A DNA stretch of 64,000 nt from an uncultured Acetobacteraceae bacterium. GTDB lineage: Bacteria; Pseudomonadota; Alphaproteobacteria; Acetobacterales; Acetobacteraceae. A program made the position numbers and the translations under genes. The DNA lies in assembly GCA_964235485.1 (NCBI GenBank), contig CAXSAZ010000019.1:8984-72983 (forward strand). The letters run 5' to 3'. Shown here piece by piece: positions 2,131-24,532 of this stretch; positions within the stretch are counted from its first letter, which is position 1, and each line of letters opens with the position of its first letter. A model generated the notes under the pieces. That model searched no databases. It worked only from the letters and a program-made list of their open reading frames with translations, and was not told the origin of the DNA.

Positions 2131-3999
2131 TCACGGCCGCCACGTCCCGCCGCCGGCGCCGGACAGCTCGCGGTCGAGGAAAAACGCGGCCGAGATGAGG
2201 GCCAGGTGGGTCAGCGCCTGCGGCGTGTTGCCGAGCTGCTCGCCGGACGGGCCGACCTCCTCCGAGAACAGGCCGAGGTGGTTGGCATGGCCCAGCATCT
2301 GCTCGAACACCAGCCGCGCTTCCGCGAGCCTTCCTGCGCGGGCCAGGCACTCGGCATACCAGAACGAGCACGCGGTGAAGGCGCCTTCCTGCCCGTCCAA
2401 GCCGTCATCCACCCGGTAGCGGAACACCAGCGCATCCTCCGCCAGCTCCCGCCCGATGGCGTCCAGCGTGGCCAGCCAGCGCGGGTCGGTGGCCGACACG
2501 AAGCGCACCAGCGGCAGCAGCAGCATGGCGCCGTCCAGGTGCGTGGCGCCGCGGGCCGCGACGAAGTGGCCGCGCTCCGCGTCCCAGAACTCGTCCCACA
2601 CGCTGGCGTGGATCTCGTCCCGCGCCGCGTGCCAGCGCACGAGCGGGGCGGGCAGGGAACGCTTCTGCGCCAGGCGCATCGCCCGGTCCACCGCCACCCA
2701 GCACATCACGCGGCTATGCAGCCAGTGCCGGGCCGGGCCGCGCATTTCCCAGATGCTCTGGTCCGGCTCCTTCCAATGCTCGCACACGTAGTCCACGGTG
2801 CGGATCGCATAGCGCCAGCCCTCGTGGCTGATCGCCTCGCCGTACTTGTTGGCGAGGTAGACGGCGTCCAGCAGCTCGCCGTAGATGTCGAGCTGGACCT
2901 GGCCATAGGCGGCGTTGCCGGTCCGCACGGGTGCCGCGCCCCCGTAGCCGCGCAGGTGCGGCAGCTCGGCCTCGTCCAGGCGTTCGTGCCCGTCCACGCC
3001 GTACATGATCTGCATGGACCCGTCGGACCCGCAGCCCTTGGCGCGCGCGCCCACCCAGCGCATGAAGGCGTTGGCCTCGTCAGCAAAGCCCAGCCGCATG
3101 AAGGCATACACCGTGAAGGACGCATCCCTGATCCATGTCGCCCGGTAATCCCAGTTCCGCCCGCCGCCCGGCGCTTCCGGCAAGCCAAAGGTCGCGGCCG
3201 CCACGACCGACCCGTGCCGGCGCGAGGTCAGCAGCTTGAGCGCCAGCGCCGAGCGCGTCACCGCCTCGCGCCAGCGCCCTTTGTAGCTGGAACGCGCGGC
3301 CCAGCCGTGCCAATGGGCGACGCAGGCCCGGAGCAGCGCCTCCGGGTCCGGCTGGCCCGGCGCTTCCGCGGCGTCCTCCAGCACGAACTCCGCGCATTCC
3401 TCCGCCCGCAACGTGAACTCGGCCACCGCCGCGCCGCCGTCGGGACCGGACTCGGCAGCCCCGGTTTCGACGGTCAGGGGCACCGTTCCCCACAGCCGCA
3501 GCGCCGGGCCGGCGTCGCCGCCGAACACGACGGCGTTCTCGGCGGGTTCCGCGCGGGTTTTGCTCCGCGCGTAGTCCAGGCGCGGGGCGCAGCGCAGGGC
3601 GAAGCGCACCTCGCCCCGCGCCGCGCGCACCCGGCGCACCAGGCGCGGCAAGCCGTCCGGCTCGGGGAAGGGCATGAAGTCCGTGATCTCGCCCACGCCG
3701 CCCGGCGCCGCGAAGCGGGTCAGCAGCACGTTGGTGTCCGGCAGGTACATCTGCCGCCGCCGCGGGCCGTCGAGCGCGGGGGCGATGCTCCACGCGCCGC
3801 CCCGCTCCGGGTCGAGCAGCGCCGCGAACACCGAGGGGCCGTCGAAGCCGGGCCAGCACAGGAAATCCACCGTGCCGTCCTCGGCCACCAGCGCCGCCGT
3901 GCCCTGGTCGCCCACCACGCCGTGCGCCTCGATGGGATGGGGGGCGGCCGGCGCCTTGGCCCGCTTCGCCTGCGCGCGGCCCGTGCCTTCCGGCATCAA
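2131..3999 (-). CDS. Glycoside hydrolase family 15 (glucoamylase/trehalase-like)
   Basis: RNWDYRATWIRDASF, SIWEMR, HSRVMCW, NHLGLFSEE...GNTPQALTH motifs. Confidence 0.9.
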   Translation of the reverse strand: MMPEGTGRAQAKRAKAPAAPHPIEAHGVVGDQGTAALVAEDGTVDFLCWPGFDGPSVFAALLDPERGGAWSIAPALDGPRRRQMYLPDTNVLLTRFAAPGGVGEITDFMPFPEPDGLPRLVRRVRAARGEVRFALRCAPRLDYARSKTRAEPAENAVVFGGDAGPALRLWGTVPLTVETGAAESGPDGGAAVAEFTLRAEECAEFVLEDAAEAPGQPDPEALLRACVAHWHGWAARSSYKGRWREAVTRSALALKLLTSRRHGSVVAAATFGLPEAPGGGRNWDYRATWIRDASFTVYAFMRLGFADEANAFMRWVGARAKGCGSDGSMQIMYGVDGHERLDEAELPHLRGYGGAAPVRTGNAAYGQVQLDIYGELLDAVYLANKYGEAISHEGWRYAIRTVDYVCEHWKEPDQSIWEMRGPARHWLHSRVMCWVAVDRAMRLAQKRSLPAPLVRWHAARDEIHASVWDEFWDAERGHFVAARGATHLDGAMLLLPLVRFVSATDPRWLATLDAIGRELAEDALVFRYRVDDGLDGQEGAFTACSFWYAECLARAGRLAEARLVFEQMLGHANHLGLFSEEVGPSGEQLGNTPQALTHLALISAAFFLDRELSGAGGGTWRP

Positions 4000-4171
4000 G
4001 CTGCGCCCCGCGTGTCCGGCCCGGCCTCCGCCGCCCAGGCCCGGCCGTTGCCGCTGATCGCAGTTTTGTCCCTGAGTCGCATGTCGGTCCCATCCTTGCC
4101 GAACGGCATCTGGTCATGGGACCGCCAGGTTGCAGCGGCGCGCAGCGTCACCGGATGCGCCGCCGGGTCGG

Positions 4172-4633
4172 CTATGACGCCGCGGCGGGACGCTTCAGCA
4201 TCAGCGCCTGGCGGCGGCACACCGCGACGACCTCGCCGCGTTGGTTGGTGGCGGTGTGCTCGAACTCGACGATGCCGGCGTTGGGGCGTGACTTGCTGTC
4301 CCGGGCCGCCAGCACGACGGTGCGCACGCCCAGGGTGTCGCCGTGGAACACCGGACGGGGAAACCGCACGTCGCTCATGCCGAGGTTGGCAAGCGTGGTG
4401 CCGAGCGTGGTGTCGTTCACCGTCATTCCAACCGTTAGGCCGAGGGTGAACAGGCTGTTGACGATGACTTGGCCGAACTCGGTCCCGGCGGCGTAGTGGG
4501 CATCGAGGTGCAACTGAGCCGGGTTCATGGTCATGGAGGAGAACAGGACGTTGTCCGTTTCGGTGACGGTGCGGCGCCAAGGGTGGTCGAACGCGGCGCC
4601 GACCGTCAGCTCCTCGAAGAACAAGCCTGGCAT
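4172..4633 (-). CDS. MaoC-family dehydratase
   Basis: RTVTETDN...[16 protein letters not shown] hot-dog fold motifs. Confidence 0.9.
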
Positions 4634-4795
4634 TTATGCGTCTCCGTCCCGTTTGGTCTTGATCGGCAGGCCGCTGCTTCTCGCGGCGTCCGCACGGCGC
4701 TGCGGGGCACGGTCATGGGGCGGCGCGCGGCCTCCGCCGTGGCTTGTCGGCCATTTTCTCAACGCCGGACAATTTCGACACACGATAGGCACTTG

Positions 4796-5827
4796 TCACG
4801 ACGGACCATGGCTTTCATCCCGGAGGATGAACCCCGCCCTTTCCCGCACTGATGCGGAGCGATCCGCAACCAGCAATGCAGCATACCCCCGCCCTTCTGG
4901 CGTTCCGATCAGGTGACGCATAACACCATCAAGCGCAACGCGGCGGACCGCGGCAGATTGATCACGAACGCCCAGCGCAATCAACTCGGCTCGTGCAGCA
5001 GCAACGGTCAGCGTTCGATGACCGAAGGTCGTTACGCGACGACGCAGCCCTATGGACTTATCGACCCACTGCCAGCCATAGCCCAATGGCCACTCGGACC
5101 TGCCTTGAAGCAGCGCACCCAGCGCGACGGCACGCACATGCGGTTGAACGGCCTCATGCGCGATACGTTTCAGGTAAGGGTCAAGCGCAGGCGTGCGGAG
5201 CGCGTGTCGGAGAACCGATGGCATGGGACCGGTCACGCCCCGAACAAGCATGTCAAACAGGCGCTCAGCAACGTCCGTGCGGGCGAACGCTTGGTCGAGA
5301 AGCCCGCGCTCCTCGCGCCAACGCCGCCAACTGCTTTGCTGGACCAGCAAGGCCACGGCAGCCCGGGCCACCACATCCGGGCTGGTCAAAGGGAAGGACT
5401 GGCGCGCACAACGCGCGGCGGCCCGGCGTACCGGCTCTGCCCAGTCATTCAGCCGCCATGCGATGGCGGCAAACAGAAAGGGGGTGGGCAAACCCCCCGA
5501 CAGCTTCATCAGGGCTGCTTCGCGAAGGTGACCGTTTCGATGAAAGAGGAACAGGTACTCAAGCTTTGGTGTTCGGAGTAGTTGCTCGTGGTCGGTCGGG
5601 CGGCGGAACAGCGAGGTTGCGAGCGGCAACGACGACGCCCAACGATGCAAACACGCCGCCGTTGCAATTTCCGCTTCGGCTTTGGCGACTTGTGCTGGCG
5701 GCACGCTGGCCAGCAAGTCAAGAGCCTCTTCCACGCTCCCTATGCGGTCGCCGCGCTCCAGCTTGGTCCCAAGCTCGGCGAGGGCATCGTGCAACGCAGA
5801 AGGCAGAACAGTGCGACAAGCATTCAC
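4796..5827 (-). CDS. Hypothetical helical (HEAT-like) protein
   Basis: 343-aa ORF with plausible composition; LNDWAEPVRRAA, QSAAVRRVAL and RSASVRERA resemble HEAT-repeat junctions; visibly more AT-rich than its neighbours. Confidence 0.6.
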   Translation of the reverse strand: MNACRTVLPSALHDALAELGTKLERGDRIGSVEEALDLLASVPPAQVAKAEAEIATAACLHRWASSLPLATSLFRRPTDHEQLLRTPKLEYLFLFHRNGHLREAALMKLSGGLPTPFLFAAIAWRLNDWAEPVRRAAARCARQSFPLTSPDVVARAAVALLVQQSSWRRWREERGLLDQAFARTDVAERLFDMLVRGVTGPMPSVLRHALRTPALDPYLKRIAHEAVQPHVRAVALGALLQGRSEWPLGYGWQWVDKSIGLRRRVTTFGHRTLTVAAARAELIALGVRDQSAAVRRVALDGVMRHLIGTPEGRGYAALLVADRSASVRERAGFILRDESHGPS

Positions 5828-19387: not shown

Positions 19388-19504
19388 CCGGGCGGGCCGG
19401 AGTTCGACGGTTATCTGTCGTGGGTTCGAGTCCCATCGGCGCTGCAAGGCACCGTAGCTCAGCTTGGTAGAGCAATTGTCGTCGGCGATCCCATGACCGC
19501 CCGG
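19388..19504 (+). ncRNA. yrlA: YrlA-type Y RNA with circularly permuted tRNA-like domain
   Basis: CCGGGCGG/CCGCCCGG stem; GGGCCGGA / AUGACC module; CGACGGU/AUUGUCG stem; T arm GUGGG-UUCGAGU-CCCAU (19420-36), acceptor-like CGGCGCU-GCAA-GGCACCG (19437-54), D arm UA-GCUC-AGCUUGGUA-GAGC-A (19455-74); upstream of Ro60. Confidence 0.88.
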
Positions 19505-19528
19505 CTGGTGAACAGGAAGGAGGCTGGC

Positions 19529-19621: not shown

Positions 19622-19641
19622 CATCCTATTCCGACATTCCT

Positions 19642-19743
19642 CCGGCGGGCCGGAGGCCGAGGGTTACCTGGTCTGCTGCCGGTTCAAGTCCGAAGGCGTC
19701 CGACCGGACGCCGTAGCACCCCTCGCCCACACATGCCCGCCGG
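19642..19743 (+). ncRNA. Y-RNA-like unit 4 (T loop + acceptor stem, D arm absent)
   Basis: CCGGCGGGC/GCCCGCCGG stem; GGGCCGGA / AUGCCC module; CGAGGG/CCCUCG stem; CGG-UUCAAGU-CCG T-like arm; GGCGUCC-GACC-GGACGCC; then UAGC. Confidence 0.78.
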
Positions 19744-19766: not shown

Positions 19767-21350
19767 ATGACCAGCCATCTGAACATCCTTTCGCGACGCG
19801 CCGCGGCGGCCACGGCCCAGGCGCTGCCGATCCCCGGCACCGTGCCGAACGCGGCGGGTGGGCACGCCTTTGCCGTCGATGATTGGGCGCGGCTCGACCG
19901 TTTCCTGATCCTCGGGTCGGAGGGCGGCAGCTACTACGCCGGCGAGCGTCCGCTCACGCGCGACAACGCCGCAGCGGTGCTGCGCGCGGTCGCGGCGGAT
20001 GGCCCCCGCGCCGTTGCGCGCATCGCCGCAATCAGCGAGGCCGGCCGCGCGCCGAAGAACGGCCCGGCCTTGTTCGCGCTCGCCCTGGCGGCGTCGGCCG
20101 ACGACCTCGCCACCCGGCGCGCGGCCCTCCTCGCCCTGCCGCGCGTGGCCCGGACCGGCACGCACCTGTTCGAGTTCGCCGGGTTCGTGGAAGGCACACG
20201 CGGCTGGGGCCGGGCGCTGCGCCGGGCGGTGGGGGCGTGGTACGGCAGCCAGCCCGTGGACCGGCTCGCCTACCAGGTGGTCAAGTATCGCCAGCGCGGC
20301 GGCTGGTCGCACCGCGACCTGCTGCGGCTCGCGCACCCGGAAACGGTTGAACCCGACCGTGCGGCGCTGCTCGACTGGGTGTGCCGCGGCACGGAGGGCG
20401 AGGCGCTGCCGACCCTGGCGCGCGCCGCATCGGCGCTTGGCCGGGCTGGCGCGGGGGCGGAAGCGGCGGCGCTGATCCGCGCGCACGACCTGCCGCGGGA
20501 GGCCGTGCCGACGGCGTTGCTGAACGACCCGGCGGTATGGGAGGCGCTGCTGGAGCGGATGCCGCTCACGGCGCTGGTGCGCTCGCTTGCCAAGCTGACC
20601 GTGGCTGGCGTGGTGAGGCCGCTCGGCGAGCGGCTGCCGCCCGTGCTGTCGGCGCTGGGCGACGTGGACCGCATCGCGCGGGCACGGCTGCACCCGCTGG
20701 CGATCCTGTTGGCGCTGCGCACCTACGCGGGGGGCCGGGGCGACCGCGGCGGCCTGCAATGGGAGCCGGTGCAGCCGGTGATCGACGCGCTGAACGCGGC
20801 CTTCTACACCGCGTTCGGGGCGGTCGAGCCGACGGGCAAGCGGCTGCTGCTGGCGCTCGACGTGTCGGGGTCGATGGCGGCGGGCCGTGTCGCCGGGTCG
20901 TCGCTGACGCCGCGCGAGGCGTCGGCGGCGATGGCGCTGATGACGGCGGCGACGGAGGCGAGCACCCATGTCATGGGCTTCGCCGACGCGCTCGTGCCGT
21001 TGTCGCTGTCGCCGTCCATGCGGCTGGACGACGCCGTGCGCGCCGTGTCGGGCCTGCCGTTCGGCGCCACGGACTGCGCGCAGCCGATGCTGTATGCGCT
21101 GGAGCGGGGCCTCTCGGTCGATGCCTTCGTGGTTTACACGGACAGCGAAACCTGGGCCGGGGCGATCCACCCGGCGCAGGCGCTGCGGCAATACCGCGAG
21201 CGGACCGGCATCGCCGCGAAGCTCGTGGTGGTGGGCCTGGTGTCGAACGGGTTCAGCATCGCCGACCCGGCCGACGCCGGCATGTTGGACGTGGTGGGCT
21301 TCGACGCAGCCGCGCCCGCCGTGATCGCCGACTTCATCCGCGCCCAGTGA
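19767..21350 (+). CDS. rsr: Ro60 ortholog (TROVE + vWA domains)
   Basis: PNAAGGHAF, RLDRFLILGSEGGSYY, VKYRQRGGWSHRDLLRLAHP, ALDVSGSM (MIDAS), TDCAQPM, YTDSETW, MLDVVGFD. Confidence 0.95.
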   Translation: MTSHLNILSRRAAAATAQALPIPGTVPNAAGGHAFAVDDWARLDRFLILGSEGGSYYAGERPLTRDNAAAVLRAVAADGPRAVARIAAISEAGRAPKNGPALFALALAASADDLATRRAALLALPRVARTGTHLFEFAGFVEGTRGWGRALRRAVGAWYGSQPVDRLAYQVVKYRQRGGWSHRDLLRLAHPETVEPDRAALLDWVCRGTEGEALPTLARAASALGRAGAGAEAAALIRAHDLPREAVPTALLNDPAVWEALLERMPLTALVRSLAKLTVAGVVRPLGERLPPVLSALGDVDRIARARLHPLAILLALRTYAGGRGDRGGLQWEPVQPVIDALNAAFYTAFGAVEPTGKRLLLALDVSGSMAAGRVAGSSLTPREASAAMALMTAATEASTHVMGFADALVPLSLSPSMRLDDAVRAVSGLPFGATDCAQPMLYALERGLSVDAFVVYTDSETWAGAIHPAQALRQYRERTGIAAKLVVVGLVSNGFSIADPADAGMLDVVGFDAAAPAVIADFIRAQ

Positions 21351-21420: not shown

Positions 21421-23811
21421 ATGCGTCGCCCCAGCGCCTACGAGACCCGCGCCCGCGAGCTGGCCACCCTCGCCGGCATCGACCCCGACAGCCGCGTTTC
21501 CCGCCCCGGCGAAGCGCCCGGCGGCCGCGGGATGCCCGCCTGGTGCGCCTTCCGCGACGCCGCGCGGGCCGAGCACCTTCAAGCCGAGATCGCCGCCGTC
21601 GCCTTGCCCGAGCAGGCCGCCGCCTATCGGGATGCACCCCTGCAAGTGTTCGGCCCGCACGAGGATGCGACGCTTGCGCAGATGCGCAACTGCATGGGCG
21701 TGGGCCGTGTCGCGGCGGGCGTGGTGTGCGCGGACGGGCACCTCGGCTACGCGCAGCCCGTGGGCGGCGTGATCGCCTATGAGGGCCAGGTCAGCATCTC
21801 CGGCGTCGGCTTCGACATCGGTTGTTTCACTGGTGACACCCGCATCTTCACGCTGAACGGGCAGACCCCGACCCTTGCGGAGTGCGAAGGGCAATCGGTT
21901 TGGGTGCTGGCCTGTGATGCCAAGGGCAAGCCGGTGCCGGCGCAAGGCGTCTGCACACGAACCCGCCGCGATGCGGCGCTGGTGCGGGTCACGCTGGACA
22001 GCGGCAAGTCGATCCGCTGCACGCCCGATCATCTGTTCATGCTTCGGAACGGCACCTATCGGCGTGCGGATGCCCTGGCGCCCGGCCAGTCGCTGATGCC
22101 GCTCTACACGACGACGGACCGAGACGGCTACGTACTGGTCCGGAACAATCAAACCCGGCGCCTCATGCGGCTGCACTGGATGGTTCATCGCGCCGGGCTG
22201 ACCGATCCGGCCCCGGACCTTCAAGGTGACGAGTTGGTTCTGCATCACCGGAACTTCACCCCGGCTGACAACGACCCGCTGAACCTGCAGCCGCTGCGCA
22301 AGGTTGACCATGACGCCATGCACGCGCGGATGCGGGACCGGGCGCACTTCAACACTCCTGAGTTCCACGAGAACCGCATCGCCGCGATCAGAAGGTTCTG
22401 GATCGGCGCCCGCCGAGACGACGGCTTCATGGAGCGGCGCCGGAACACGGCGACGGCCAACATTACCGGCTACATGGAAGGGCGCCCCGAGGAGTTTCGT
22501 CATGCGATCAAGAACAACGGGCGGCGTGGCTCTTCGCATCTCCTCCGGTTCAACACTGACCCGAACACGATCCGCCGCAACCGCGAGCGTGCCAGGAGGC
22601 CGACGCCGTGTCCGCTGTGCAGCGTCGAAATGATCTCGACGTCCTCCCTTTATTACCACGCGAAGAAGGAACACGCCGAGACGCTTGCGGCGGGTCTGCG
22701 GGCGGGACGGCAGCGTGGCAAGAACAGCGTGGCTGAGCGGTTGGTGCTCGGCGCGAACAACCACAAGGTCATCTCCATCGAACCCGTGGCAGAGCAGGAA
22801 GACGTGTTTTGCTTGTCCGTGCCGGGGCTGAACAACTTCGCCCTCGCGGACGGGGTGTTCGTCCACAACTGCGGCAACATGGCGGTGCGGCTCGACACGC
22901 CGTATGCGGCGGTGGCGGACCGGGCGGGCGCGATCCTGGCCGACATCCGCCGGGCGGTGTCGTTCGGCGTGGGGCGCACGAACGCCGAACGGGCCGAGCA
23001 TCCCCTGTTCGACGACGAGGACGCTTGGCGTGACGCCGACATGACCGCCTACCGGCAGAAGGCAGCGGCGCAGCTCGGCACCGTGGGGTCGGGCAACCAT
23101 TACGTGGACTTGATGCGGGACGAGGCCGGCTTCGTGTGGATCGGCGTCCACTTCGGCAGCCGCGGCTTGGGGCACACCTCGGCCACCAAGTACCTGAAGC
23201 TCGCCGGCGGCCAGGACGGCATGAACGTGCCGCCCGCGGTGGTGGACGAGGACAGCGAGCTGGGCCGCCGCTACGTCGCGGCCATGGAACTGGCCGGCCG
23301 CTACGCTTATGCCGGGCGCGAATGGGTGGTGGAGCGCGTGCGCCGGATCATCGGCGGCGCGGTCACGGACAGCGTGCACAATCACCACAACTACGCTTGG
23401 CGGGAAACGCATAACGGGCGGAACTTGTGGGTGGTGCGCAAGGGCGCCACCCCCGCCTGGCCCGGCCAGCGCGGCTTCGTGGGCGGGTCCATGGGCGACG
23501 ACGCGGTGATCATCGAGGGCGTGGACAGCCCGGCCGCGCAGGCGGCGCTGTATTCCACGGTCCACGGCGCCGGGCGGCTGTTCGGGCGGCAGCAGGCCAA
23601 GCGGTTGTTCAAGCGTGAGCAGATGGACGCTTGGCTGCAGGAGCGCGGCGTGCTGCTGGCCGGGGGCGACCTGGACGAAAGCCCGATGGCCTACCGCCGC
23701 CTGCCGGACGTGGTGGCGCAGCACGCCGGCACGATCCAGGTGCAGCACAGCCTGCGCCCGTTCGCGGTGGCCATGGCCGGGGACGGCGAGTTCGACCCAT
23801 TCAAGGATTGA
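21421..23811 (+). CDS. rtcB: RtcB RNA ligase containing an intein (796-aa precursor, 447 aa spliced)
   Basis: ADGHLGY.QPVGGV, GFDIG|CGN, LGTVGSGNHY, HFGSRGLG, HNHHNYAW, VVRKGATPA, STVHGAGR, DESPMAYR. Confidence 0.95.
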   Translation: MRRPSAYETRARELATLAGIDPDSRVSRPGEAPGGRGMPAWCAFRDAARAEHLQAEIAAVALPEQAAAYRDAPLQVFGPHEDATLAQMRNCMGVGRVAAGVVCADGHLGYAQPVGGVIAYEGQVSISGVGFDIGCFTGDTRIFTLNGQTPTLAECEGQSVWVLACDAKGKPVPAQGVCTRTRRDAALVRVTLDSGKSIRCTPDHLFMLRNGTYRRADALAPGQSLMPLYTTTDRDGYVLVRNNQTRRLMRLHWMVHRAGLTDPAPDLQGDELVLHHRNFTPADNDPLNLQPLRKVDHDAMHARMRDRAHFNTPEFHENRIAAIRRFWIGARRDDGFMERRRNTATANITGYMEGRPEEFRHAIKNNGRRGSSHLLRFNTDPNTIRRNRERARRPTPCPLCSVEMISTSSLYYHAKKEHAETLAAGLRAGRQRGKNSVAERLVLGANNHKVISIEPVAEQEDVFCLSVPGLNNFALADGVFVHNCGNMAVRLDTPYAAVADRAGAILADIRRAVSFGVGRTNAERAEHPLFDDEDAWRDADMTAYRQKAAAQLGTVGSGNHYVDLMRDEAGFVWIGVHFGSRGLGHTSATKYLKLAGGQDGMNVPPAVVDEDSELGRRYVAAMELAGRYAYAGREWVVERVRRIIGGAVTDSVHNHHNYAWRETHNGRNLWVVRKGATPAWPGQRGFVGGSMGDDAVIIEGVDSPAAQAALYSTVHGAGRLFGRQQAKRLFKREQMDAWLQERGVLLAGGDLDESPMAYRRLPDVVAQHAGTIQVQHSLRPFAVAMAGDGEFDPFKD
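21823..22869 (+). mobile_element. Intein (349 aa) with HNH endonuclease domain and C2H2 zinc finger
   Basis: Starts CFTGDT; block B IRCTPDHLF; block F DVFCLSV..LNNFAL; ends VHN followed by Cys+1. Internal VLHHRNF..ADNDPLNL...DH...H and CPLC-x12-H-x4-H. Confidence 0.93.
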
Positions 23812-23836: not shown

Positions 23837-24532
23837 TTAAGCCCGGCCCACGCCCACCTGCCGGCACATGGACAATAGCGGGCAAGCCGGGCACCTCGGC
23901 CGTGGGCCGGTGCAGACGTGCTTGCCGAAGGGCACCAGGCGCTCGTTGATCTCGATCCAATATTCCTGCGGCAGCTTGCCGGCGAGGGCGGCCATGGTGC
24001 GCTCCGGCGTGGACCCGGCGACGTAGCCCCAGCGGTTGGCTATCCGGTGGACGTGGATGTCCACGCAAATGGCAGGCTTGTTGAACCCGACCGCCAAGGT
24101 CAGCGCCGCCACCTTCGGGCCGACCCCGCGGAATGCGGTCAAGCCTTCGGGCGTGTCCGGGACCGTGCCGCCGTGGCGCTCCAAGATGGCGCGGGACAGG
24201 GCGAGGATGTCGCGCGCCTTCGGTTCCGGGAAGGTGGCCCCGCGGAGCAGGGCGGTCAGCTCGCCTTCGTCCAGCGCCGCCATGGCCACGGGCGTGCGGG
24301 CGCGGGCGAACAGGCGATGGCACACGGGGATCGTGGTCTCGTCCAGCGTGCGGGCGCTGATCAGGCTGGCGACAAGCTGTTCATAAGGGGTGTCGTATCC
24401 CTCGTCCCGGAGCTGGAACATCGCCGCCTTGGGCAAGCGGGCGCAGGCCGCGCGCAGGCGGCGGAAAACCTCGTGGATGTCGAAGGGGTCCTTGCCTGCG
24501 GCGTCCGGGGGCAAAGGGGCGGGGTCAGGCAA
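23837..24532 (-). CDS. nth: Endonuclease III-family HhH-GPD DNA glycosylase
   Basis: LTAFRGVGPKVA HhH, VDIHVHRIANRWG, C-x6-C-x2-C-x5-C 4Fe-4S motif. Confidence 0.9.
   Translation of the reverse strand: MPDPAPLPPDAAGKDPFDIHEVFRRLRAACARLPKAAMFQLRDEGYDTPYEQLVASLISARTLDETTIPVCHRLFARARTPVAMAALDEGELTALLRGATFPEPKARDILALSRAILERHGGTVPDTPEGLTAFRGVGPKVAALTLAVGFNKPAICVDIHVHRIANRWGYVAGSTPERTMAALAGKLPQEYWIEINERLVPFGKHVCTGPRPRCPACPLLSMCRQVGVGRA

Follow-up and report, generated by a model that had tools for sequence, protein, structure and literature searches.

The rtcB gene of an uncultured Acetobacteraceae bacterium, studied here in a 64,000-nucleotide window of contig CAXSAZ010000019.1 (assembly GCA_964235485.1), is interrupted in frame by an intein, and the residue that follows the insertion is a metal-binding cysteine of the RNA ligase RtcB. 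We read this element as a horizontally acquired class 1 homing intein, whose HNH nuclease would have a C2H2 zinc finger in its DNA-binding module, and assign this reading a probability of roughly 0.8. Standard four-step protein splicing would release the intein from the precursor and restore RtcB, with Cys1, the Thr and His of block B, the penultimate His, the terminal Asn, and Cys+1 as the predicted splicing catalysts. An HNH-type homing endonuclease would occupy the central part of the intein and bind DNA through a basic helical region and the C2H2 finger. In a cell with an intein-less rtcB, cutting or nicking by this nuclease would occur close to GACATCGGC/TGCGGCAAC (here and below, the slash marks the insertion point), and the empty allele would gain the intein when it is repaired on the template of the intein-bearing one. 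Judging by its sequence features, it is probably a still functional homing intein.

The open reading frame at positions 21421–23811 of the forward strand encodes 796 amino acids, and residues 135–483 of this precursor (349 amino acids; positions 21823–22869, same strand) form the intein, with junctions GFDIG/CFTGDTR upstream and VFVHN/CGNMAV downstream. These are exactly the coordinates proposed in a preliminary description of this DNA, and they agree with the junction motifs, with Pfam matches of the rtcB product to RtcB (PF01139; 3e-60) and Intein_splicing (2.8e-19), with the matches of both the N- and C-terminal NCBIfam intein models to the precursor, and with the empty sites of related genes. 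The frame of the intein contains no stops and no frameshifts, and excision of residues 135–483 in silico yields an RtcB of 447 amino acids. In five alleles from the same genus, residues 1–135 directly abut residues 484–796, with 87–96% protein identity (the N-extein is likewise 87–96% identical to the N-terminal part of the same-genus intein-less alleles). At the nucleotide level, the exteins are 87–93% identical to these alleles, whose empty site is GACATCGGC/TGCGGCAAC or, with more of the surrounding sequence of one such allele, ...GGCTTCGACATCGGC/TGCGGCAACATGGC.... The insertion is not a matter of chance, since the intein-less alleles, representing five species, join exactly at this point. 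An assembly artefact was also considered and is ruled out by the continuous frame and by the occurrence of the same architecture in independent metagenomes (L093, L013, and L094).

RtcB is a 3'-phosphate/5'-OH RNA ligase with Asp, Cys, and three His residues as metal ligands and a His that is guanylylated; in the enzyme of Pyrococcus horikoshii, Asp95 and Cys98 are among the metal ligands. The roles of the other individual conserved residues are those that we take from established knowledge. According to a phmmer comparison with PDB sequences, the segment GVGFDIGCGN of the joined exteins aligns with GIGYDINCG of P. horikoshii RtcB, and, counting along the alignment, the Asp of the N-extein corresponds to Asp95, and Cys+1, to Cys98 (D95-I-N-C98-G), which bears out the earlier suggestion that Cys+1 is the metal-binding Cys of RtcB. 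The assignment of the host protein to the RtcB RNA ligases is supported, along with the Pfam match, by the conserved D-x-x-C, GSGNH, GSRGLGH, HN, and HGAGR motifs. In the alignment, GSGNHY, HFGSRGLGH, HNHHN, and STVHGAGR of the C-extein are the counterparts of the P. horikoshii active-site motifs that contain His, and, as these remaining motifs are conserved, the spliced product should be a normal ligase. The D-x-x-C loop is split by the insertion and its metal-ligand Cys is used as the +1 nucleophile; hence the unspliced precursor, with 349 residues wedged into the metal-binding loop, should be inactive.

Inteins at this Cys are known in archaeal RtcB, as the preliminary description stated. 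Indeed, the insertion point in RtcB of P. horikoshii (PH1602) is the same, as “Cys98 is the splice junction” as well as a metal ligand (PMC4150793). The archaeal RtcB intein belongs to a different lineage from the one considered here, and the archaeal-type model NF038162 gave reported matches only in the C-extein of our protein and its relatives, with none for the intein scanned alone. The archaeal intein presumably carries a LAGLIDADG-type endonuclease.

The N-terminal half of the splicing (HINT) domain contains block A (CFTGDT, beginning with Cys1) and block B (RCTPDH, with Thr67 and His70); in the AlphaFold model, the predicted local distance difference test score (pLDDT) of this half is 95–98, and its Foldseek matches are solved inteins. 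In the C-terminal half, block F reads EDVFCLSV, where Cys330 occupies position F:4, and block G reads VFVHN, where His348 is followed by Asn349. Conservation of residues, here and below, was judged on an alignment of 64 sequences, that is, the intein and 63 homologues, in which Cys1, Thr67, Pro68, Asp69, His70, Cys330, His348, and Asn349 are invariant. The model of the whole intein has a mean pLDDT of 91 and, compared to PDB with Foldseek, produced 34 matches at E ≤ 0.001, all of them to intein, Hedgehog, or intein-endonuclease structures; only HINT domains were returned, and the insert was then modelled separately. All residues of class 1 are present (Cys1, Thr at B:7, His at B:10, the C-terminal His-Asn pair, and Cys+1), and by sequence the intein is assigned to this class.

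Class 3 inteins have no N-terminal Cys, Ser, or Thr and are distinguished by the WCT triplet, that is, Trp at B:12, Cys at F:4, and Thr at G:5 (PMC2807308). This class was considered on account of the block F Cys, which is the only class 3 feature of the RtcB intein, and rejected given Cys1, Phe72 at B:12, and His348 at G:5. The same three residues set the RtcB intein apart from DnaBi1 of Mycobacterium smegmatis, a class 3 intein conditional on zinc and oxidants, with no N-terminal nucleophile and with the WCT triplet, although Cys at F:4 is common to both.

Cys330 (positions 22810–22812) is invariant in RtcB HNH inteins (133 cases among the retrieved proteins), whereas in alignments to solved inteins this position is occupied by Asp in Npu DnaB, in a DnaE intein (7qil), and in PabCDC21-1; related HNH inteins with Ser or Thr at +1, from portal-type hosts, also have Asp there. 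In M. smegmatis DnaBi1, zinc binds Cys118 of block F and reversibly blocks splicing (PMC7360933), and, by analogy, Cys330 might be a metal or redox handle on splicing. This brings in a conditional intein, as raised in the preliminary description, in which zinc or manganese, the redox state, or nucleic acid would gate splicing and thus provide a post-translational switch on RNA repair. Apart from the DnaBi1 precedent, such gating would agree with the position of the intein on the catalytic metal-ligand Cys, with the three thiols (Cys1, Cys+1, and the F:4 Cys) predicted to lie at or close to the splicing centre, and with rtcB being single-copy in this genome, so that all RtcB activity depends on splicing. 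However, the intein is distributed sporadically, as a selfish element would be (one out of 301 family genomes, and none of the five same-genus alleles); its family also occurs in an rtcB with no Ro60 gene nearby (L094) and in several RtcB subfamilies and phyla; and the finger lies within the endonuclease insert, after the helical region, not in the splicing domain. Nothing in the analysis favours gating by Y RNA or single-stranded DNA; the finger has this position, and the family occurs outside rsr operons as well. The metal or redox version is kept alive, at low odds, by the invariant block F Cys, and overall we consider conditional splicing improbable. We are similarly sceptical of its extension to the whole RtcB HNH-finger family, which would make the family a thiol/metal switch, with Cys1, Cys+1, and Cys330 forming a zinc, manganese, or disulfide trap that holds the precursor inactive until the right metal or redox state, and would make the nuclease a natural single-finger “zinc-finger nuclease” reading the active-site codons of RtcB. 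More simply, the finger would be a part of the DNA-binding module of the nuclease.

Both the HNH motif and the finger named in the preliminary description are present in the insert. The HNH core LHHRNFTPADNDPLNLQPLRKVDHDAMH ends at position 22323, as had been proposed, and its motif, at 22243–22323, contains His141, His142, Asn150, Asn154, Leu155, His163, and His167; five of these residues (His141, Asn150, Asn154, Leu155, and His163) are invariant, and the other two, His142 and His167, are at least 90% conserved. HNH endonuclease family 7545 of PHROGs (phrog_7545) matches intein residues 96–175 with E = 1.2e-8. The separate model of residues 95–312 has a pLDDT of 89.6, and its first 80 residues or so match phage HNH and homing endonucleases in BFVD (Foldseek probability 1.0, E down to 2e-4); compared to PDB, the insert model has weak matches only, to zinc fingers and I-PpoI.

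The nuclease core and the finger are separated by about 85 residues of basic helices (179–196, 200–220, 222–228, 237–245, and 247–257 in the AlphaFold model), for which no profile match was found. Phe181, Asn232, and Gly236 of this region are invariant, and it is presumed to be a DNA-binding extension of the nuclease. The finger CPLCSVEMISTSSLYYHAKKEH, with the pattern CPLC-x12-H-x4-H, satisfies the classical C-x2-4-C-x12-H-x3-5-H spacing; its Cys263 and Cys266 are invariant, and His279 and His284 are at least 90% conserved. It is modelled as a β-hairpin and a helix, and its top PDB folds are classical C2H2 fingers (GAGA factor, CTCF), with a root mean square deviation of 0.7–2.6 Å over 27–34 residues and E-values of only about 0.5–1, such poor values being expected for so small a module. 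In Pfam, the only match to the finger is a weak one to zf-Di19 (E = 0.0085), and all Pfam matches are below the cut-offs. The linker that follows the finger exceeds that of the common form of the family by about 27 residues (349 versus 322 amino acids for the intein). Coordinates of the intein parts and of the neighbouring features are given in Table 1.

Table 1. Features of the intein-bearing rtcB gene and its upstream neighbours, in positions of the window.
Feature	Positions	Strand	Evidence
YrlA-like Y RNA	19389..19506	+	Rfam RF02553, 44 bits, E = 1.8e-7, full-length model, below the gathering score of 69
rsr (Ro60 orthologue, TROVE and vWA)	19767..21350	+	Pfam vWA_Ro60 5.8e-67, TROVE 1.1e-39
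RtcB N-extein	21421..21822	+	Residues 1–134, ending with GVGFDIG; alignment to P. horikoshii RtcB
Intein N-terminal splicing (HINT) half, residues 1–95	21823..22107	+	TIGR01445 intein_Nterm 3.8e-9
HNH (beta-beta-alpha-Me) nuclease domain, intein residues 96–175	22108..22347	+	PHROG profile, fold, motif
Basic all-helical region, intein residues 176–262	22348..22608	+	AlphaFold model; no profile match
Single C2H2 finger, C263-x2-C266-x12-H279-x4-H284	22609..22674	+	Regular expression match
Post-finger linker, intein residues 285–312	22675..22758	+	Length comparison
Intein C-terminal splicing half, residues 313–349	22759..22869	+	TIGR01443 intein_Cterm
RtcB C-extein and stop codon	22870..23811	+	Residues 484–796, beginning with Cys+1; Pfam RtcB

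The distribution of the intein is patchy. Of the 17 other genomes compared within the genus, 10 yielded a match to rtcB, and none has the intein; and among 301 genomes sampled in the family (143 genera), the intein is present in this genome only, where neither a second copy nor other related inteins were found. The presence/absence comparison among close relatives, proposed in the preliminary description, thus yielded intein-less alleles within the genus and no intein in the remaining 300 family genomes. The nearest allele with an intein (79% identity) lies on a contig from an independent metagenome and has the same RlaP-HTH-Ro60-RtcB gene order; in the case of the L094 intein (70% identity), no Ro60 gene is located within some 3 kb upstream or downstream of the host rtcB. 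The L094 locus (positions 3001–5436) is on the metagenome contig that carries P0003, and its intein shares 85% identity with ours over HINT-N and HNH, but only 30% over the finger segment, where it has a different finger, CPLCGLVTKGPAGLALHARFKH; such a mosaic suggests exchange of modules between intein alleles.

The GC content of the intein is 64.6%, and that of its third codon positions (GC3), 82%, compared to 72.2% and 92%, respectively, for the exteins. The less GC-biased codon usage reported earlier is therefore real, but its interpretation as a sign of recent invasion is weakened: the GC3 offset recurs in each of the three other intein-bearing alleles compared, and 6.8% of equally long native-gene stretches in the window have GC3 as low, which makes the offset weak evidence for recency. 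Absence from the same-genus alleles and from the 300 other family genomes is better evidence for horizontal gain. At the insertion site, the sole difference is a synonymous change from GGC to GGT in the −1 codon (positions 21820–21822, the last Gly of the N-extein): our gene has GGT, and GGC is found in eight aligned intein-less alleles and in three other intein-bearing genes. The first codons of the intein, TGT TTC ACT GGT, are AT-richer at the wobble position.

Pairwise ratios of nonsynonymous to synonymous substitution rates (dN/dS), which are averages over long divergence, equal 0.14–0.20 for the intein overall (about 0.14–0.23 including the nuclease), 0.18–0.23 for the HNH domain, and 0.18–0.29 for the helical region, similar to 0.13–0.27 for the exteins. 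Taken together, purifying selection, intact motifs, and the patchy distribution would place this intein in the mobile phase of the homing cycle.

Several results weigh against this reading. Pfam HNH_3 (PF13392) has no match to the intein or to the insert alone, even at E ≤ 10, so that the HNH call is based on PHROGs, the homologues, and the fold; the fold matches of the zinc finger are statistically weak; and dN/dS, being an average, is no proof that the present copy has kept its nuclease activity. Furthermore, no co-conversion tract that could point to the donor, the timing, or the direction of the invasion is seen around the site, the same-genus identity being uniformly high there.

The absence of an HNH_3 match in this copy, given that the model matches 51 out of the 63 relatives aligned with the intein, is also what one might expect of a decaying intein, in which splicing is kept, as it is needed for RtcB, while the HNH nuclease is inactive and the element is immobile. 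The extra linker in this intein clade (349 versus 322 amino acids) points in the same direction, and nuclease loss in fixed inteins is predicted by the homing cycle as it is generally understood. This explanation is, however, difficult to reconcile with the intact state of all family-invariant HNH and finger residues, with the frame free of stops and frameshifts, with dN/dS of 0.18–0.29 in the nuclease and helical parts, and with the fact that the intein is not fixed in the genus, that is, with a stage at which an active nuclease is expected; we give it little credence. 

As a probable homing intein, the element is a fairly ordinary representative of a large, already catalogued family of selfish RtcB inteins. 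A search with the intein region yielded 2034 proteins at E ≤ 0.001 among 8000 candidates scored. About 95 of the best 120 matches have an intein at the same D-I-G/C-G site of RtcB, and nearly all of these combine the HH[KR]N..DN..NL motif with the C-x2-C-x12-H-x4-H finger, their usual length being 322 amino acids; the same finger spacing is observed in about 90 of the best 120 matches. Named sources include cyanobacteria, Pyrinomonadaceae, Chloroflexota, a deltaproteobacterial metagenome-assembled genome, and an Acetobacteraceae one. The novelty implied in the preliminary description was overrated, as HNH plus finger is the norm in a family of more than 2000 matches, one branch of which has a curated NCBI model. 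In the survey by Novikova et al. (2016), 27 bacterial and 10 archaeal RtcB inteins are reported, and the bacterial phyla listed do not include Proteobacteria (PMC4760082). Descriptions of HNH nucleases within inteins date back to 1997 (Dalgaard et al., cited in bioRxiv 10.1101/2025.01.02.630785). The intein described here is an alphaproteobacterial, long-form newcomer to this known and abundant family.

An exhaustive search with the nuclease insert alone gave 81 cluster representatives (50% identity) at E ≤ 0.001. When Pfam was applied to 10 of these 81 relatives, nine had a match, and in nine out of nine the insert was inside an intein; five of the hosts were RtcB, and among the rest were T4-like portal proteins and a glycosyltransferase/methyltransferase. 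For P0184, the T4-like portal host sampled, the match does not extend to the finger, and finger-like Cys/His motifs are seen in two non-RtcB hosts, P0144 and P0151. This pattern would fit the finger as a target-specific DNA-binding add-on to the nuclease.

Two further observations concern related inteins. The metagenome RtcB proteins P0002 and P0011 carry the same HNH-finger intein together with a second, LAGLIDADG-type intein at HNHHN[YF]/C; therefore, inteins occupy no fewer than two different sites in bacterial RtcB. The locus L096 (positions 67–2829; G001:C273), from another genome of the genus, encodes a 920-amino-acid terminase-like protein with a related HNH intein (35% identity), which has the junctions DHPPRG/CFTGETR...VFVHN/S and a different Cys-rich module (CAIDGC...C..H). 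This locus may represent a phage reservoir of such inteins in the genus.

We also compared the intein with named systems. NF052663 (“RtcB_rel_intein2”), an exception-level NCBIfam family named “intein-containing RtcB family protein,” represents the cyanobacterial branch, with a homologous intein at the same D-I-G/C-G site and with the same HNH motif, finger, and block F Cys. Scanned by itself, the intein reaches 186 bits (E = 1.4e-54) against the intein portion of this model, and the whole protein scores 334 bits, below the curated cut-off of 1050, which is passed by RtcB of Chondrocystis sp. NIES-4102 (P0020; 1223 bits); hence the Acetobacteraceae RtcB is a homologue and not a member of NF052663. 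Our intein shares about 40% identity with the NF052663 example and exceeds it by 27 residues, its host RtcB is of another subfamily (CGN instead of CGM after the junction, and an N-terminal extension), and the source is an alphaproteobacterium, not a cyanobacterium, with the gene in a Y RNA-rsr-rtcB operon. HNH nucleases are also found in frame within other inteins and as free-standing HNH_3 homing endonucleases of phages. The core of our nuclease matches the phage enzymes by both profile and fold, but those described have no classical C2H2 finger.

Small zinc modules attached to homing nucleases, which position or bind them on the DNA target, are known from the linker finger of I-TevI and from the fingers of yeast HO, a degenerate intein fused to zinc fingers; HO is treated in bioRxiv 10.1101/2020.01.20.913210. 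It is in this attachment that, on established knowledge, the RtcB intein resembles them. However, I-TevI is a GIY-YIG enzyme with a Cys4 finger, and HO has a LAGLIDADG core and fingers outside its intein-like part, whereas in the RtcB intein a single C2H2 finger lies beside an HNH core, inside an intein predicted to be splicing-competent.

The gene rsr is located directly upstream of rtcB, and the Y RNA, upstream of rsr; judging by this order, the setting is a predicted Y RNA-rsr-rtcB (Y RNA-Ro60-RtcB) RNA-repair operon. At the Rfam gathering thresholds, no match was found anywhere in the window, and the YrlA-like RNA was found only by a relaxed scan; a second weak structured match is located at 19641–19743. 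Neither rtcR nor rtcA was seen near the operon. A reading frame of 231 amino acids at 23837–24532 of the reverse strand, convergent with rtcB, resembles, by eye, an endonuclease III or HhH-GPD-type DNA glycosylase.

The finding mainly extends a known phenomenon to Acetobacteraceae. For this organism, it implies that the sole RtcB of the genome, encoded in a Y RNA-Ro60-RtcB operon, would be active only after protein splicing, and studies of RNA repair must reckon with the intein. For the family, it draws attention to a widespread group of inteins in which an HNH nuclease is naturally fused to a classical C2H2 finger, an architecture of which no description in RtcB was found in the literature searched. 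These inteins target one of the most conserved DNA stretches of rtcB, and such a fusion acting on conserved DNA is therefore a convenient system for studying homing-site recognition by HNH enzymes, as well as a possible source of compact site-specific nickases or nucleases.

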